Below are positions 1-44,641 of a DNA stretch of 64,000 nt, piece by piece. The notes below the pieces were generated by a model, which was given only the letters and a program-made list of their open reading frames with translations, searched no databases and was not told where the DNA came from. Each line of letters opens with the position of its first letter. The first letter of the stretch is position 1. The stretch is from an uncultured Gemmatimonadales bacterium (lineage in GTDB: Bacteria; Gemmatimonadota; Gemmatimonadetes; Gemmatimonadales; GWC2-71-9). The stretch spans positions 345,291-409,290 of the forward strand of contig CAWCVB010000005.1 of NCBI GenBank assembly GCA_963798915.1. The letters are read 5' to 3'. Both the position numbers and the translations under genes were made by a program.

Positions 1-415
1 CCATCGGTGCCCATGCTGACTGGGCCTGAAACAGAAGGTCGTGCAGGGTCCAGAACTTGCCTTGCCGGGCGGCGCACAGGCCCAGTTCGGCCGCGGGCAG
101 CGCGTTGGGATGAATCTCGGTGATCGGGAAGTTGATGAAGATGTAGCGTACCTTGCCGGTGGCGATGTACTCGCGCTCCAGCACCGGCAGTGTTTCCACG
201 GCATGACGGCGGCAAAAGGGGCACTGGAAGTCCGACATCTCATAGACGGTGACGGGTGCGTCACTCCGGCCCATCACCCGAGCCTCACGCGGGTCCCCGG
301 TGTCGGCGGCCATGGGCCCCGGCGTCGAGACGTTCGGCGGCGGCTCCTGCCTCGGCGGCGATCCGGAGCATGCCGGGGCCAGGAGCGCGGCCAGAATCAG
401 CGAACGGATCAGCAT
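1..415 (-). CDS. DsbA-family thioredoxin-fold lipoprotein (3' end runs off the window)
   Basis: Not in the ORF track; translated manually: MLIRSLILAALLAPAC...GRSDAPVTVYEMSDFQCPFC...GKVRYIFINFP...HPNALPAAE...QGKFW. It has the DF-CPFC active site and a lipobox-like LAPAC. Confidence 0.88.
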   Translation of the reverse strand, partial: MLIRSLILAALLAPACSGSPPRQEPPPNVSTPGPMAADTGDPREARVMGRSDAPVTVYEMSDFQCPFCRRHAVETLPVLEREYIATGKVRYIFINFPITEIHPNALPAAELGLCAARQGKFWTLHDLLFQAQSAWAPM

Positions 416-40131: not shown

Positions 40132-40276
40132 GTGCTGCCCGCTTCCGCAGCGGCGGTTCACGCCGTATATGTTCTGGATCAGCCCGGGCAGGACACTGCG
40201 CGGGCTCTCTATCAAACGTCCCGCTGCGAGAAAACGCAAGTCGCATCCGCCGGTTTCTTCCACTCCCGAGGCCACC

Positions 40277-40720
40277 ATGTTCAGGGATTTCAAGACGTTT
40301 ATCATGCGCGGCAATGTGCTCGACCTGGCTATCGGTATCATCATAGGCGGCGCATTCGGGACGATCGTGAAGTCCTTCGTGGACGACATCCTCATGCCGC
40401 CGATTGGCATGTTGCTGGGCAATGTGGACTTCACTGACCGCTTCATCCTGCTGAAGGAGGGGACCAGCGTGTTACCCCGCGGCGCGAGTCTGGAACAGGC
40501 CAAGGCCGCCGGGGCTGTCACCATCAATTACGGCTCGTTCATCAACGCCGTGGTCGCGTTCCTGATCATCGCGTTCTGCGTCTATCTTGTGGTGCGAGCC
40601 GCCAATCGGCTTGAGGGCCCCAAGGAGGCAACAGTGCCAACCACGAAGAACTGCCCCTTTTGCGCGACCGCTATTCCGCTGGCCGCCAAGAAATGTCCCA
40701 ACTGCACGTCGGCCCTGTGA
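40277..40720 (+). CDS. mscL: Large-conductance mechanosensitive channel with C-terminal CxxC-CxxC ribbon
   Basis: FKTFIMRGNVLDLAIGIIIGGAF, NYGSFINAVVAFLIIAF; tail CPFC...CPNC. Confidence 0.95.
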   Translation: MFRDFKTFIMRGNVLDLAIGIIIGGAFGTIVKSFVDDILMPPIGMLLGNVDFTDRFILLKEGTSVLPRGASLEQAKAAGAVTINYGSFINAVVAFLIIAFCVYLVVRAANRLEGPKEATVPTTKNCPFCATAIPLAAKKCPNCTSAL

Positions 40721-40728
40721 TCTCCGGC

Positions 40729-40757
40729 TTGACGAGGACGGGCCAATGCTTTACACT
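40729..40757 (+). promoter_or_regulatory. sigma70 promoter of the membrane protein-regulator operon
   Basis: TTGACG (40729-40734), 17 nt, TACACT (40752-40757). Confidence 0.78.
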
Positions 40758-40764
40758 GTAAAGT
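40748..40764. promoter_or_regulatory. Palindromic operator 1
   Basis: G-CTTTACA-C-TGTAAAG-T, a perfect 7-bp inverted repeat covering the -10. Confidence 0.75.
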
Positions 40765-40769
40765 AGTTT

Positions 40770-41375
40770 ATGGCTTCGCCACCACGACGAGTGGACGCGC
40801 CGGCGGCGCTGCATGACCGGGCGATGGATAACCTGTCTTACATCCGATCTGCCATGGAGCGCGCCGGGACGTTCACGGCCGTGCCGGGGTGGGGCGGAGT
40901 GGCCATGGGGCTGTCGGCCCTCCTCGCGGCGGCGCTGGCCGCCGTCCAGCGGCAGGTGCATGGCTGGCTGGCAGTGTGGATGGCCGAGGCCGTGGTGGGG
41001 GCCGCCATCGGTGGCCTTGCCATGCGTCGGAAGGCGCGGCGCATCGGCTCTCCCATGCTGGGGCGACCCGGCCGCCGCTTCTTCTTGAGCTACGCTCCAC
41101 CTATTGTGGTGGGAGCGCTGCTGACGGTGGTATTGTACCGGGGGTCGCTGGCCGAAGCCCTTCCCGGCACCTGGCTCCTCTGCTACGGGACCGGGGTGGT
41201 GACCGGCGGCGCGTTTTCGGTGCGAGTGGTGCCGGTGATGGGACTGTGTTTCATGGGGCTGGGCGCGTTGGCCTTGGCGTTGCCGGCGTCAGCAGGCAAC
41301 TGGCTCCTCGCGGCGGGTTTCGGAGGGCTGCACGTGATTTTTGGGTTGGCAATTGCCCGGAGGTATGGTGGCTAG
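40770..41375 (+). CDS. Integral membrane protein (about 6 TM)
   Basis: RAMDNLSYIRSAMERA N-helix, hydrophobic helices, WLLCYG, GFGGLHVIFG, ends RRYGG overlapping the regulator start. Confidence 0.85.
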   Translation: MASPPRRVDAPAALHDRAMDNLSYIRSAMERAGTFTAVPGWGGVAMGLSALLAAALAAVQRQVHGWLAVWMAEAVVGAAIGGLAMRRKARRIGSPMLGRPGRRFFLSYAPPIVVGALLTVVLYRGSLAEALPGTWLLCYGTGVVTGGAFSVRVVPVMGLCFMGLGALALALPASAGNWLLAAGFGGLHVIFGLAIARRYGG

Positions 41376-41751
41376 GAGCAATGCGGCACGAAAGACGGGA
41401 CGGGACCACGAGGCGGCTCGCCGCCTGACTGGCGTGCGCGGCGGACAGGAAGGCGAGGCGCTGGCGCTCGACCGGGTGATTCATGAACGGGTCCGGCTCG
41501 CCATCGTCAGTGCGCTCGCGGTGAATTCCACGCTCTCGTTCAGCGAACTCAAGGCGCTGCTCGACGTCAGTGACGGTAACTTGAGCGTGCACGCCAGGAA
41601 ATTGGAGGAGGCTGGCTACGTCGCCTGCCGCAAGTCCTTCGATGGGCGGATGCCGCGCACCGAGTATTCACTCACCGCCGCCGGACGCCGGGCGCTCGAG
41701 CAGTATCTGTCGCACATGGAGGCCCTGATCGCCGCGACCAGAAGCGGCTGA
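41368..41751 (+). CDS. Winged-helix transcriptional regulator (ArsR/MarR-like, HTH_34 type)
   Basis: [56 protein letters not shown]. Confidence 0.92.
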
Positions 41752-41779
41752 GCGGTGGTGGCTTTTTTTTGCCGTTGCA

Positions 41780-41796
41780 ACTTTGTGATACAAAGC
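41780..41796. promoter_or_regulatory. Palindromic operator 2 upstream of uppS
   Basis: A-CTTTGT-GAT-ACAAAG-C; same length and outer bases as operator 1; follows a T8 run. Confidence 0.68.
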
Positions 41797-41819
41797 ACTT
41801 ATTGGAAAGGACCGAGCCG

Positions 41820-42569
41820 ATGGCAGGAGAGTGGGCAGGCCGCCGCACAGGCCTGCATGTAGCGGTGATCATGGACGGCAACGGGCGCTGGGCCACCAGG
41901 CAGGGATTGCCCCGTGCCGCGGGCCACCGGGAAGGTGTGGAAGCCGTGCGCCGCCTGGTCGAGGGCGCACCCGGCGCCGGGATCAGCACGCTCACGCTGT
42001 ACGCCTTTTCCTCCGACAACTGGCAACGGCCCACGCGCGAAGTGCAATGGCTCATGCGCTTGTTTCGCGAATATCTGCGTGGGGAAACGGCGCGCTGTGT
42101 GGCGACCGGGACCCGGCTCAGCATCATAGGGCGGCGCGACCGCCTTGCCCCATCGGTGCTGCGACAGATCCAGCGTGCCGAGGCACAGACGGCTGAGGGT
42201 ACCCGGCTGCATCTCCGCGTTGCCGTCGACTATTCAGCGCGGGACGCCATCCTGCGAGCGGCCGCATGTGCCGGCACGGAGGAACTGACGCGCGAGCGCT
42301 TCGGCCGGCTCCTCGCCATTGCGGACCACGGTTCCACCCGCACGCCGGATGTCGACCTCCTGATCCGGACCGGTGGAGAACAACGCCTGAGCGACTTTCT
42401 GCTCTGGGAGTGCGCCTATGCAGAGCTGCTCTTTCTTCCCGTCATGTTTCCCGACTTTGCGGAGGCCGACCTGATGGCGGCGCTGCATGCCTTTCACGCT
42501 CGAGAGCGGCGCTTCGGCAGCCTCCAGGCCGTGCCCCAACCCGTCCAGACGGATCGGAGGATCTCCTGA
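41820..42569 (+). CDS. uppS: cis-prenyltransferase (undecaprenyl/polyprenyl diphosphate synthase)
   Basis: [62 protein letters not shown]. Confidence 0.93.
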
Positions 42570-43148
42570 TGAGCACGCTCCTGCGCCTGGCCGGGCCGGT
42601 GCTATTCTTCGCAGCGGTCACCAGCCTCGTCGCGTTGCTGGCTCTGGGTGTAACCGTCCTGGCGCGCGGGAGGAGTCGCGCGACCCGGTGGGCGACGGCT
42701 GCCTGCGTGACGGTGCTCGCCACCTATGGGCTGGCAATCGCCGCCGGATGGCTGCTGGCGCCGCGGCGCACTCTCGCCATGGGGGAAGAAGTGTCGTTCT
42801 GTGGCCTCGACTGCCATCTGCACGTTGCGGTGCTCGATGTCGACGGCGCCCGCGTGCAGGTTCGTCTGCGAAGCGACGCGCGCCGGGCGCCAGAGTATCC
42901 GTCGCATCTCGACGTTCGCGCCGTGGACGATCGTGGCGCCGTCCTGCGTCCTCATGCCGGTCTGGGAATCGGGTCCGCTTCTGGCCGGCCGGCAGCATCA
43001 GGAGGAACTACAGTTTTCGCTGGCACCAGGCCGGCGCATCACGGGGCTGCGGGTCACCTGGGGTAGCTGGCTTGATTACCTGGTGCCGGGCCCGCAGAAC
43101 GCGATGGTGCAGTCGCGAACTTTGCTGACTGCTATCCCGCGCCTGTAA
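42569..43148 (+). pseudogene. Membrane-anchored hypothetical protein split by a +1 frameshift near 42964-42966 (pseudogene or sequencing error)
   Basis: First frame gives two TM helices, FCGLDCH and VRAVDDRG, then degrades; the next frame continues ESGPLLAG...ELQFSL...LRVTWGSWLDYLVPGPQN. Removing one G from GGG joins them. Confidence 0.65.
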
Positions 43149-43405
43149 TGTTGGCCTGTGGCGTGACTCACACCGGCCGGGGCACGGCGCTGATATCTTG
43201 CGGAGTGAAACGCGCGGGCGGTGGCCGGCGCGGCTGGGAGCGGAGACTGGACGTCTTGCACAAGCATGGGCAAAGGAGGCGACACATTCAGCAGGCACTG
43301 GCGCGCCAGCGCATCGGGACGGATTATAGGGGTGAAGCGCTGCCCGTTCTGGTGCCGCGGGGACGCGGCACAGCGGTCAGCGTCCGCTCGGGAGGACGAG
43401 TCCTC

Positions 43406-43753
43406 ATGCGCCTGGTTTTCGTGGTGCTTGGTCTTGGTGCCGGGACAGGCATTGGCTTTTTCAACGTCGGCACGGGAAACACGCTGGTGACGGCTGTCTT
43501 GCTGGCAGCCGCGGCATTCCTGCTCGCCGTGCTGCGCCCGGCATTTGCCTGGATGTCGGCCACGCTGGTCGGGCTCGGCGTGCCAGCTGCCTATCTCTGG
43601 GCCACCATTGCCGGCGCGGTGATCGACTACCCGCCGCAACCCAACCTTGCTGCCACCCTGCTTGCGCTTCTGCCCGCCGTGGCGGGGGCCCTCGTGGCGC
43701 TCGCTCTCCGGCGCGTCCTGCTGGGCGCCTCGGAGTCCCGTGTTCACCGCTGA
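43406..43753 (+). CDS. Small membrane protein (about 4 TM)
   Basis: GGAGGA SD; hydrophobic 115-aa ORF. Confidence 0.72.
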   Translation: MRLVFVVLGLGAGTGIGFFNVGTGNTLVTAVLLAAAAFLLAVLRPAFAWMSATLVGLGVPAAYLWATIAGAVIDYPPQPNLAATLLALLPAVAGALVALALRRVLLGASESRVHR

Positions 43754-43804
43754 TCCGCGCCACTTTCAGTCATGTCCGCGCGTCCTGGGCGTCCTGAGGC
43801 GCGC

Positions 43805-44641
43805 ATGACCGGTGGTCCGTCCGAGGCGCCCCGGATTTCCAGCAGGGTGCCGACGGCCCTCATCACCGGAGCCTCGACAGGAATCGGGCGCGAACTGGCA
43901 CGGCTGTTTGGCCGCGACGGGTTTGCGCTTGTGCTGGTGAGTCGGAGTGGCGACAAGCTCGCGACCGTGGCGACCGAACTGCGTGACGCGTATGGCGCCA
44001 CGGTCACCACGGTTCCTGCCGACCTTGGCGTGCCTGCTGAACTGGAGCGGCTCCTCTCCACGCTCGCGGCGTCCGATATTCGTGTGGATGTCCTCGTAAA
44101 CAATGCCGGGTTCGGCGGGGCGGGCCGATTCTCCGAGACGTCCTTGACGGATGAACTGGCCATGATCGCACTCAACGTGGATGCGCTCGTGACGCTGAGC
44201 AAGCGCCTCCTGCCGCCAATGCTGCAGACTCGCCGGGGCCGGATTCTCAATGTCGCCTCCACGGCGGCCTTTCAGCCTGGCCCCTTCCAGGCGGTGTATT
44301 TCGCGACCAAGGCGTTCGTGCTGTCCTTTTCGGAAGCGATCGCCGAGGAGTTGCGTGGCTCCGGCGTGACAGTGACAACGCTCTGTCCGGGGCCCACCGA
44401 GACCGGCTTCGCCCAGCGCGCCGGATTCCGCTCGTCGCCCATGATGGGTGCACGGATGGATGCCCGAAGCGTCGCGGAGGCGGCCTACACCGCGACGCTT
44501 CGGGGTGAGCGGATCGTGGTGCCCGGTGTCGTCAACAAGATGCACGCCCAGGCGGTCCGGCTTACGCCACGCGGGCTGCTGACGCGACTCGCCGGCGCTG
44601 CCCAGCAGCGGCGGATGGGGGCGGGGGATGAGGCGCCGTAG
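43805..44641 (+). CDS. SDR family oxidoreductase
   Basis: TGASTGIG, LVNNAGFG, NVAS, YFATK; alternative start 43772. Confidence 0.92.
   Translation: MTGGPSEAPRISSRVPTALITGASTGIGRELARLFGRDGFALVLVSRSGDKLATVATELRDAYGATVTTVPADLGVPAELERLLSTLAASDIRVDVLVNNAGFGGAGRFSETSLTDELAMIALNVDALVTLSKRLLPPMLQTRRGRILNVASTAAFQPGPFQAVYFATKAFVLSFSEAIAEELRGSGVTVTTLCPGPTETGFAQRAGFRSSPMMGARMDARSVAEAAYTATLRGERIVVPGVVNKMHAQAVRLTPRGLLTRLAGAAQQRRMGAGDEAP

Follow-up and report, generated by a model that had tools for sequence, protein, structure and literature searches.

Small repressors of the winged-helix type that are encoded together with a membrane protein are known from the BlaR1-BlaI and MecR1-MecI systems, in which both genes are co-transcribed and autoregulated via palindromic operators and the target is envelope-related, and membrane sequestration of a repressor is known from Mlc-PtsG. 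Undecaprenyl phosphate is a scarce carrier common to the peptidoglycan, O-antigen, capsule and teichoic-acid pathways, and to our knowledge the control of its supply at the level of transcription is largely unknown. Here we analyze a locus within a stretch of 64,000 nucleotides (nt) from an uncultured Gemmatimonadales bacterium (contig CAWCVB010000005.1; this whole stretch is called the window), in which the gene of a protein with six transmembrane (TM) helices overlaps the gene of a winged helix-turn-helix (wHTH) protein, both being followed by uppS2, a paralogous cis-prenyltransferase gene, and in which two similar palindromes are found at positions expected for operators.

The pairing of such a membrane protein with a wHTH protein has been predicted before. 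In the portions of Burroughs et al. ("The lipocone superfamily", eLife 2025;14:RP108061, PMC12419801) that concern the Skillet-DUF2809 operons, a protein with a cytoplasmic helix and six TM helices (helix+6TM) is placed beside a wHTH gene, with CreD (92 loci), a "12TM" protein (70 loci), ElyC, Coq4, DUF1361 and TGase as components and with the entry "Prenyltransf: 7 loci, loosely associated". According to the same portions, genes for isoprenoid lipids (e.g. undecaprenol) or exopolysaccharides join such operons, which are reported in the Fibrobacteres-Chlorobi-Bacteroidetes (FCB) group, and the authors predict a coupling of lipid and exopolysaccharide metabolism to transcription; HAAS/PadR-HTH two-part systems, in which a small HTH repressor is retained or set free by its partner in the membrane, are described there as well. 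No operator, regulon or mechanism for the helix+6TM/wHTH system is seen in these portions of the paper. In addition, our literature searches returned nothing relevant on a repressor or operator of uppS, and no relevant paper on the function of DUF4153 or on HTH_34 (PF13601). An earlier note on this DNA, which had been made from the sequence alone, took the system to be undescribed; this is right for the operator, the regulon and the tight link to uppS, which are new, but not for the wHTH-6TM type of switch, which those portions of Burroughs et al. already predict on computational grounds.

The locus and the conservation of its palindromes

The promoter, palindromes, overlapping genes, T8 run, uppS and coupled open reading frame (ORF) to which the earlier note had drawn attention are all present in the window:

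40729..40757, + strand: promoter P1 (TTGACG-17-TACACT), near-consensus and sigma70-like
40748-40764, no strand: predicted operator O1, GCTTTACACTGTAAAGT, with the core CTTTACACTGTAAAG at 40749-40763; it covers the -10 hexamer of P1
40770..41375, + strand: TM gene, 201 amino acids (aa), six TM helices preceded by one cytoplasmic helix, without a match in Pfam or NCBIfam
41365..41751, + strand: gene of an HTH_34 winged-helix regulator (PF13601)
41763..41770, + strand: T8 tract between the wHTH stop codon and O2
41780-41796, no strand: predicted operator O2, ACTTTGTGATACAAAGC, with the core CTTTGTGATACAAAG at 41781-41795 and a third half-site CTT at 41798-41800
41820..42569, + strand: uppS2, cis-prenyltransferase paralogue (PF01255, TIGR00055, NF011412)
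42569..43148, + strand: ATGA-coupled gene of a membrane-anchored protein, frameshifted near 42969

Judged from this arrangement and from its conservation in relatives, the TM, wHTH, uppS2 and membrane-anchored protein genes probably form an operon that is autoregulated by the wHTH protein as a repressor, via the two predicted operators. P1 is the sole sigma70-like match of the promoter scan between 40500 and 43400, where 0.3 are expected from shuffles, and since the TM start codon lies only 12 nt after the -10 hexamer, a transcript from P1 would be almost leaderless. The start of the wHTH gene overlaps the end of the TM gene by 11 nt, and the translation of the two is probably coupled. O2 is located 23 nt upstream of the uppS2 ATG (41820); a promoter of its own for uppS2 at O2 would be weak (TTGCAA-17-CTTATT) and is not called by the promoter scan.

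With at most one mismatch, the core CTTTRYNNNRYAAAG occurs twice in the window versus 0.39 times expected, and 7 of 100 shuffles, which served as the control for the window, also reach two; motif enrichment from the 64-kb window alone is only suggestive. In the complete source genome (G000; 3.31 Mb, 66.2% GC, 84.8% complete), the full pattern proposed in the earlier note (RCTTTRY-N3-RYAAAGY) has four exact matches, all of them intergenic, compared to about 0.13 expected by arithmetic from 66% GC and to none for the reversed pattern, which was used as the background control for the motif. O2 obtains the top score of the whole genome (36.1) with a position weight matrix.

For the comparison with relatives, 101 genomes that GTDB assigns to this family were used, in which the 29 best loci were compared in detail; two of these (L017 and L035) come from genomes flagged as unpublished, and counts for the remaining 27 are given in brackets. 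In the following, site 1 denotes the palindrome before the TM gene and site 2 the one after the wHTH gene. Of the 101 family genomes, 89 encode the TM protein. Its gene is followed by the wHTH gene at 29 of 29 loci (27 of 27) and then, according to tblastn, by uppS at 26 of 29 (24 of 27), with one locus (L013) ending at a contig edge just as uppS begins. The exact core is present as site 1 at 26 of 29 loci (24 of 27) and as site 2 at 23 of 29 (21 of 27).

A wider scan with one genome per species yielded at least 590 relatives. At the best 80 loci among these, the wHTH gene invariably comes after the TM gene; 78 of the loci have site 1, 58 have site 2 and 38 have uppS. These 80 loci belong to Gemmatimonadales, to Acidobacteriota (Pyrinomonadaceae, Bryobacterales, Terriglobia, Acidiferrales, Chloracidobacterium and Blastocatellia) and, in one case, to a metagenome-assembled genome labelled Chloroflexi. 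In every locus examined, the TM and wHTH genes overlap. Across Gemmatimonadales and Acidobacteriota, CTTTRY-N3-RYAAAG thus constitutes a strong phylogenetic footprint. The suggestion of the earlier note that the palindromes serve as operators of the adjacent wHTH protein, for which it had named conservation upstream of orthologues as a check, gains support from their recurrence at the same two places in relatives from two phyla.

Site logos were generated from 102 site-1 and 79 site-2 sequences. The CTTT/AAAG arms are invariant, the site-1 logo reads RCTTTRYNNNRCAAAG-TA-CTTGACA, and the flanks of both sites are conserved too. In 77 of the 102 site-1 sequences the palindrome is followed by NN and then by a CTTGAC-like -35 element. 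There, TAnnnT is located 17 nt after the -35 and an ATG about 7 nt further downstream, so that these site-1 promoters, too, would be expected to give leaderless mRNA. In the window's own clade, TTGACG lies upstream of the palindrome and the palindrome lies over the -10, and at unlinked promoters of DUF4153 and idi genes, as read from the sequences, it fills the spacer between TTGACT and TAnnnT or TATAAT-like hexamers. Such a shift of the site among -35, spacer and -10 fits occlusion by a repressor and not a fixed activating geometry.

At site 2, a third half-site CTT is found at +17..19 in 71 of 79 sequences, and in 39 of the 79 uppS itself starts within the palindrome, with its ATG at positions 4-6 (M-x-Q-S-T-S-L-H-V-A-I-I-M-D-G). 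Where uppS starts inside site 2 in this way, a GAGG Shine-Dalgarno sequence is located between the T tract and the palindrome, and there is no space for a promoter of its own. At several loci (L025, L029, L037, G035 and G031) uppS abuts or overlaps the wHTH stop codon, which leaves no room for a separate promoter; uppS would thus be co-transcribed with the preceding genes and site 2 would be an operator inside the operon.

A run of at least four Ts, mostly of seven to nine, precedes site 2 in 76 of the 80 sequences that were folded. TTTG stands exactly at -12..-9 in 62 of 79 site-2 sequences, the window being offset by 1 nt, so that the distance between tract and palindrome is almost constant. 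Neither site 1 nor the unlinked sites have such a T7-9 tract. By a simple terminator scan of the window, no hairpin was found before the T8 run. RNAfold gave -16 kcal/mol for the 40 nt before T8, with a bulged stem that ends 4 nt before the Ts, and before the T tracts of relatives the results range from strong GC hairpins to -2 kcal/mol. Judged from the logos, the tract has the wrong spacing for a -35 or -10 hexamer and also for an element of the Bacteroidetes type, and these interpretations were rejected.

uppS2, the paired proteins and a predicted wider regulon

UppS2 scores above the cut-offs of PF01255 (237.8 versus 27 bits), TIGR00055 (222.4 versus 109.55) and NF011412 (359.9 versus 334), the NCBIfam models that it matches carrying differing names, and E. 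coli UPPS (1jp3) matches it at E 2.4e-52. The genome contains two PF01255 genes. The other one is found on contig C15 in the order rpsB-tsf-pyrH-frr-uppS-cdsA-dxr-rseP, that is, at the frr-cdsA position at which the earlier note had proposed to look for a second copy, and its product, the housekeeping UppS, is 44% identical to UppS2. With this copy in the frr-cdsA-dxr cluster on C15, the uppS of the window, which is placed between the wHTH gene and the membrane-anchored protein gene instead of in the housekeeping frr-uppS-cdsA-dxr setting, is a paralogue outside the housekeeping context.

The term "extra uppS" used in the earlier note is therefore appropriate for this genome, but it cannot be generalized: in 22 of the 101 family genomes there is a single PF01255 match, which lies directly behind the TM-wHTH pair, so that the switch-linked copy is the only one found. 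The TM proteins of this clade of 22 genomes are 39–47% identical to that of the window. The Pfam annotation of G035 (one contig), G031 and G077 (one contig) likewise shows TM - HTH_34 - Prenyltransf in this order and neither frr nor cdsA in the vicinity. As the switch sits on the only uppS found in these 22 genomes, its general role would lie in controlling the synthesis of carrier lipids rather than in boosting it under stress only. One switch-linked uppS (G036, locus L018) contains an in-frame TAG and is a possible pseudogene or sequencing error. Many relatives (L012, L014, L019-L023 and others) encode a short UppS2 of about 215 aa, i.e. some 30 residues fewer than the 249-aa form of the window, and owing to these missing residues PF01255 matches the short form in two pieces.

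The AlphaFold model of the TM protein (predicted local distance difference test, pLDDT, 87.5) comprises an N-terminal cytoplasmic helix (residues 14-31) and six TM helices. In the alignment there are 39 invariant columns, and the helix as well as the motifs FTAVPGWG, GRRF, WLLLYGTG..TGGAFSV and GFGGLH..FG are conserved. The protein belongs to no Pfam family even at E<=5 and has no NCBIfam match; a Foldseek comparison of the model with the PDB gave no match at E<=0.001, a wider fold search gave generic helical bundles only (best Z 9.6, a designed 6-helix barrel), and a Protein Atlas search returned unnamed clusters only. A profile search with the TM protein retrieved at least 8000 proteins, and among the 120 listed none carries a Pfam domain or a name beyond "hypothetical protein".

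The wHTH protein matches PF13601 over model positions 1-80 of 80 (98.3 bits versus 27), and it is the product of the one strong HTH_34 gene in this genome. Its model (pLDDT 83.4) shows a disordered basic tail (residues 1-27), the wHTH core and a long C-terminal helix. The nearest folds are PH1061 (1ub9, top match, which is also matched by sequence at E 2.8e-8), the small PadR protein Rv3488, MarR and HxlR. There are 43 invariant columns in the wHTH alignment, including D70, G71, N72, S74, V75, H76 and R78 in the recognition helix.

Outside the locus, the source genome contains two additional exact sites and two near matches, all of them intergenic. Three of these copies are located before the following genes:

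C7:177157: intergenic site, 30 nt before the gene of a 132-aa membrane protein (MTAVEKYFFSP...WWESRR, here called the WWESRR protein)
C2:404697: intergenic site upstream of a DUF4153 gene (PF13687, E 5e-64), where it abuts a TTGACA -35
C3:119750: site with one mismatch plus a third half-site, about 30 nt before the gene of a membrane-anchored protein of the metallo-beta-lactamase (MBL) superfamily (C3:118811-119719, - strand; PF00753, E 2.8e-22)

In 41 family genomes the full pattern has 101 matches compared to 34 for the reversed control. The genes downstream of 40 sites outside the locus were inspected, and the following recurred:

DUF4153: six standalone sites (G035, G070, G020, G039 and G042, plus G000)
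Poly_export/SLBB (Wza-like) exporter: five sites in four genomes (L133, L137, L157, L160, L164), plus a partial one in G041
Type-1 isopentenyl diphosphate (IPP) isomerase, idi: G069 and G035 (NF002995, 181 and 171 bits versus 127)
WWESRR membrane protein: five genomes (G000, G070, G027, G012, G002)
Membrane protein starting with MKKWLRRIRG: G035, G020 and G022

At Acidobacteriota loci without uppS, the switch is followed by genes for DUF4153, CreD-like proteins, flavin adenine dinucleotide (FAD) enzymes, B12-radical-SAM proteins and a 228-aa membrane protein. The FAD enzymes resemble geranylgeranyl (GG) reductases, with TIGR02032 scores of 120–135 bits, which is below the cut-off of 158.8. In G000, which is 84.8% complete, the idi, Wza-like, CreD, GG-reductase-like and radical-SAM proteins of the relatives have no tblastn match at E<1e-6. 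The motif scan that the earlier note had proposed for defining a regulon thus revealed additional copies before membrane, isoprenoid and exopolysaccharide genes. The genes concerned, which encode DUF4153 proteins, Wza-like exporters, IPP isomerase and small membrane proteins, point to a small regulon, predicted from the sequences, with isoprenoid or polyprenyl lipid supply and the envelope or exopolysaccharides as its theme.

A further intergenic copy, at C7:41277, is preceded by a gene resembling those of di-haem cytochrome c peroxidases, together with its terminator, and is followed by a 58-aa ORF and, about 300 nt away, by a TPR/S41-like gene; a paralogous 3' end of the peroxidase-like gene is found on C14. 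A decayed MKKWLRRIRG membrane gene behind C7:41277 was looked for and not found.

Around the switch and uppS2, the window contains these neighbouring genes:

40274-40720, + strand: mscL, with a small C-terminal zinc-ribbon-like tail
43148..43753, + strand: gene of a small multi-TM protein, start uncertain, no Pfam family; a conserved operon follower in relatives
43772-44641, + strand: short-chain dehydrogenase gene, after the small TM gene

The coupled gene of a membrane-anchored protein that the earlier note had seen does exist as an ATGA-coupled ORF at 42569, but it is frameshifted: it occupies two frames, 42569-43066 and up to 43148, and is a single ORF in relatives. The homologues from G060 (207 aa) and G036 (253 aa) are intact, and aligning either of them with the window requires a change of frame near 42952-42978. 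One metagenome contig of 151 nt (run X2, depth 2, four other differences) lacks one base at 42969, which would bring the frames into register, so that the break would be either a strain variant or an assembly error. In two genomes of this genus the gene is missing altogether. Further downstream, the operons of G060 and G036 contain DUF4153 and a homologue of the small membrane protein encoded at 43148-43753 of the window, and such homologues come after uppS2 or DUF4153 in G024, G095, G060 and G036. The short-chain dehydrogenase gene also follows the small TM gene in G024, G095 and L076, a conserved synteny of unclear meaning. mscL lies directly 5' of the TM gene here, in 7 of the 29 family loci and in 7 of the 80 wider loci; its tail gives a weak match to UPF0547 (22.3 bits versus a cut-off of 29).

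Proposed mechanism and alternative explanations

From the observed anatomy of the locus, the recurrence of its sites in relatives and the genes that make up the regulon we infer that the wHTH protein would bind the sites and repress, and that its 6TM partner would set its activity. In detail, a dimer of the wHTH protein would bind the inverted repeat CTTTRY-N3-RYAAAG, usually together with a third half-site NN-CTT. At P1, where the site covers the -10 (in this genus) or abuts or overlaps the -35 (in most relatives), binding would exclude RNA polymerase and result in autorepression. The second copy, after the wHTH stop codon and the T tract, would place uppS2 under a control of its own, in the simplest case by acting as a roadblock to polymerases that come from P1; where relatives have uppS at this place, the site equivalent to O2 mostly coincides with the uppS start codon. 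The same repressor may control further promoters, namely those of DUF4153, the WWESRR protein and the MBL-fold protein in this genome and those of idi, Wza-like, CreD-like and GG-reductase-like genes in relatives. Given the gene content of this regulon, its overall role would be control of the supply of polyprenyl lipid carriers together with envelope and exopolysaccharide functions.

How the membrane protein might act can be specified only with decreasing confidence. A direct contact between the TM and wHTH proteins via the conserved cytoplasmic N-terminal helix is quite conceivable, if somewhat short of probable. Possible, but tentative, is a lipid-carrier homeostat in which the 6TM protein would read the pool of free polyprenyl phosphate or diphosphate and hold or release the repressor via its cytoplasmic helix, giving feedback on synthesis (uppS, idi) and on carrier use (exporters, DUF4153, CreD). 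That the TM protein makes or moves a ligand appears rather unlikely. More doubtful still is a role of the T tract in which RNA polymerase, meeting bound repressor 8–10 bp downstream, would stall with the RNA 3' end in the U tract, resulting in a hairpin-independent but repressor-dependent termination before uppS.

Several observations weigh against this interpretation as a whole. Site 2 is missing in 22 of the 80 wider loci. Judging from the reversed control, about one pattern match in three is background; some sites precede unrelated genes (Amt, ABC transporter), which are probably part of this background, and the exact copy at C7:41277 has no recognisable target. Three genomes (G040, G048 and G053) lack a TM match and still have one or two motif matches. 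Another factor could bind the motif. A search for RNA runs that contain the locus found none, and the run contigs that align to it cover fragments only. A site directly upstream of the -35 is also compatible with activation. The sensor role of the TM protein is a conjecture, as the protein has no known fold or family, the link to bacitracin-type stress raised in the earlier note is a conjecture too, and the genome on which the analysis is centred is incomplete.

The wHTH protein might instead be a plain ligand-sensing autorepressor following the logic of ArsR-ArsB or TetR-TetA, which would bind a prenyl phosphate, a metal or a lipid by itself, with the 6TM protein as a co-transcribed transporter or enzyme, and so as cargo instead of a sensor, and without the two proteins ever touching. 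It does match ArsR, MarR, PadR and HxlR models as well, its nearest folds are small ligand-responsive repressors, and the conserved residues His40, Glu41, Cys88, His117 and Glu119 could form a ligand site. However, the predicted structure has no separate ligand domain, consisting of the core, one C-terminal helix and a disordered tail, and the ArsR metalloregulator model NF033788 gives only 31.4 bits versus a cut-off of 55. In addition, the TM-wHTH pair is invariant (80 of 80 wider and 29 of 29 family loci) and its genes overlap, whereas the other cargo varies, which is the pattern of a two-part switch, and the portions of Burroughs et al. that treat the helix+6TM/wHTH pair (PMC12419801) also read it as a switch. 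We consider the plain autorepressor unlikely, but it has to be kept in mind.

Two other explanations concern the palindromes themselves. They might act as RNA, in the form of a hairpin, a terminator or a translational control of uppS, or they might bind a different, unlinked factor. The position of site 2 within the transcribed region, beside the T tract and often including the uppS start codon, would be in keeping with an RNA element, but site 1 lies upstream of the -35 in 77 of 102 sequences and is not transcribed from P1 there, the stem would consist of four to six mostly A-U pairs around a non-complementary centre, the same motif is found within promoter spacers at unlinked genes, and the motif tracks the wHTH gene at 78 of 80 loci, all of which make this explanation highly improbable. 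It is also very unlikely that the wHTH protein is an activator or dual regulator that acts from upstream of the -35, with the -10 site of this genus as a derived exception. The centre of the palindrome about 11 bp upstream of the -35 in most relatives is indeed a place where activators can sit; nevertheless, promoters that come as close to the consensus as these (TTGACA-17-TAnnnT) do not require an activator, and the variable position of the site (upstream of the -35, in the spacer, over the -10 or at the start codon) fits occlusion. Autorepression by the wHTH protein under the influence of its membrane partner is the reading that we prefer.

Significance and relation to described systems

For the supply of the lipid carrier, the locus offers a dedicated regulator, a DNA signal and a list of targets that can be read from the sequence and that are conserved across Gemmatimonadota and Acidobacteriota, and in one clade no uppS was found other than the one behind this regulator. 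Cultured members exist in both phyla. The helix+6TM, DUF4153, CreD-like and WWESRR families are named as players in the biology of carrier lipids or exopolysaccharides. The gene-neighbourhood prediction contained in the portions of PMC12419801 on these operons becomes a regulon that can be tested directly.

With the Skillet-DUF2809 system, as depicted in those portions, the present locus shares a helix+6TM protein beside a wHTH protein and the association with CreD, isoprenoid and exopolysaccharide genes, a likeness in architecture, and DUF4153 is probably the 12TM protein of that paper. It differs in that uppS is placed directly behind the wHTH gene, whereas Prenyltransf is listed as loosely associated there. 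DUF2809 (PF10990) itself was not detected in G000 at E<=1 (84.8% complete) or among 79 downstream ORFs of related loci, and the 15 DUF2809 loci that were detected when 201 genomes from the phylum were searched are neither beside the TM/wHTH pair nor beside the motif.

The wHTH fold is close to the small PadR proteins of the HAAS/PadR systems; in contrast to these, there is no HAAS domain here, and the score for PadR (PF03551, 23.6 bits) is below the cut-off of 27. The ArsR/SmtB and MarR autorepressors are similar with respect to the wHTH core, the logic of a dimer on a palindrome and the autoregulation, and PH1061 (1ub9) is the nearest solved relative, but the wHTH protein of the window stays below the cut-offs of both families and belongs to HTH_34. 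Compared to BlaR1 and MecR1, finally, the 6TM protein is devoid of zinc-protease, extracellular sensor and penicillin-binding domains (no Pfam match at E<=5), and unlike in BlaR1-BlaI and MecR1-MecI the two genes overlap and the target is a lipid-carrier synthase.

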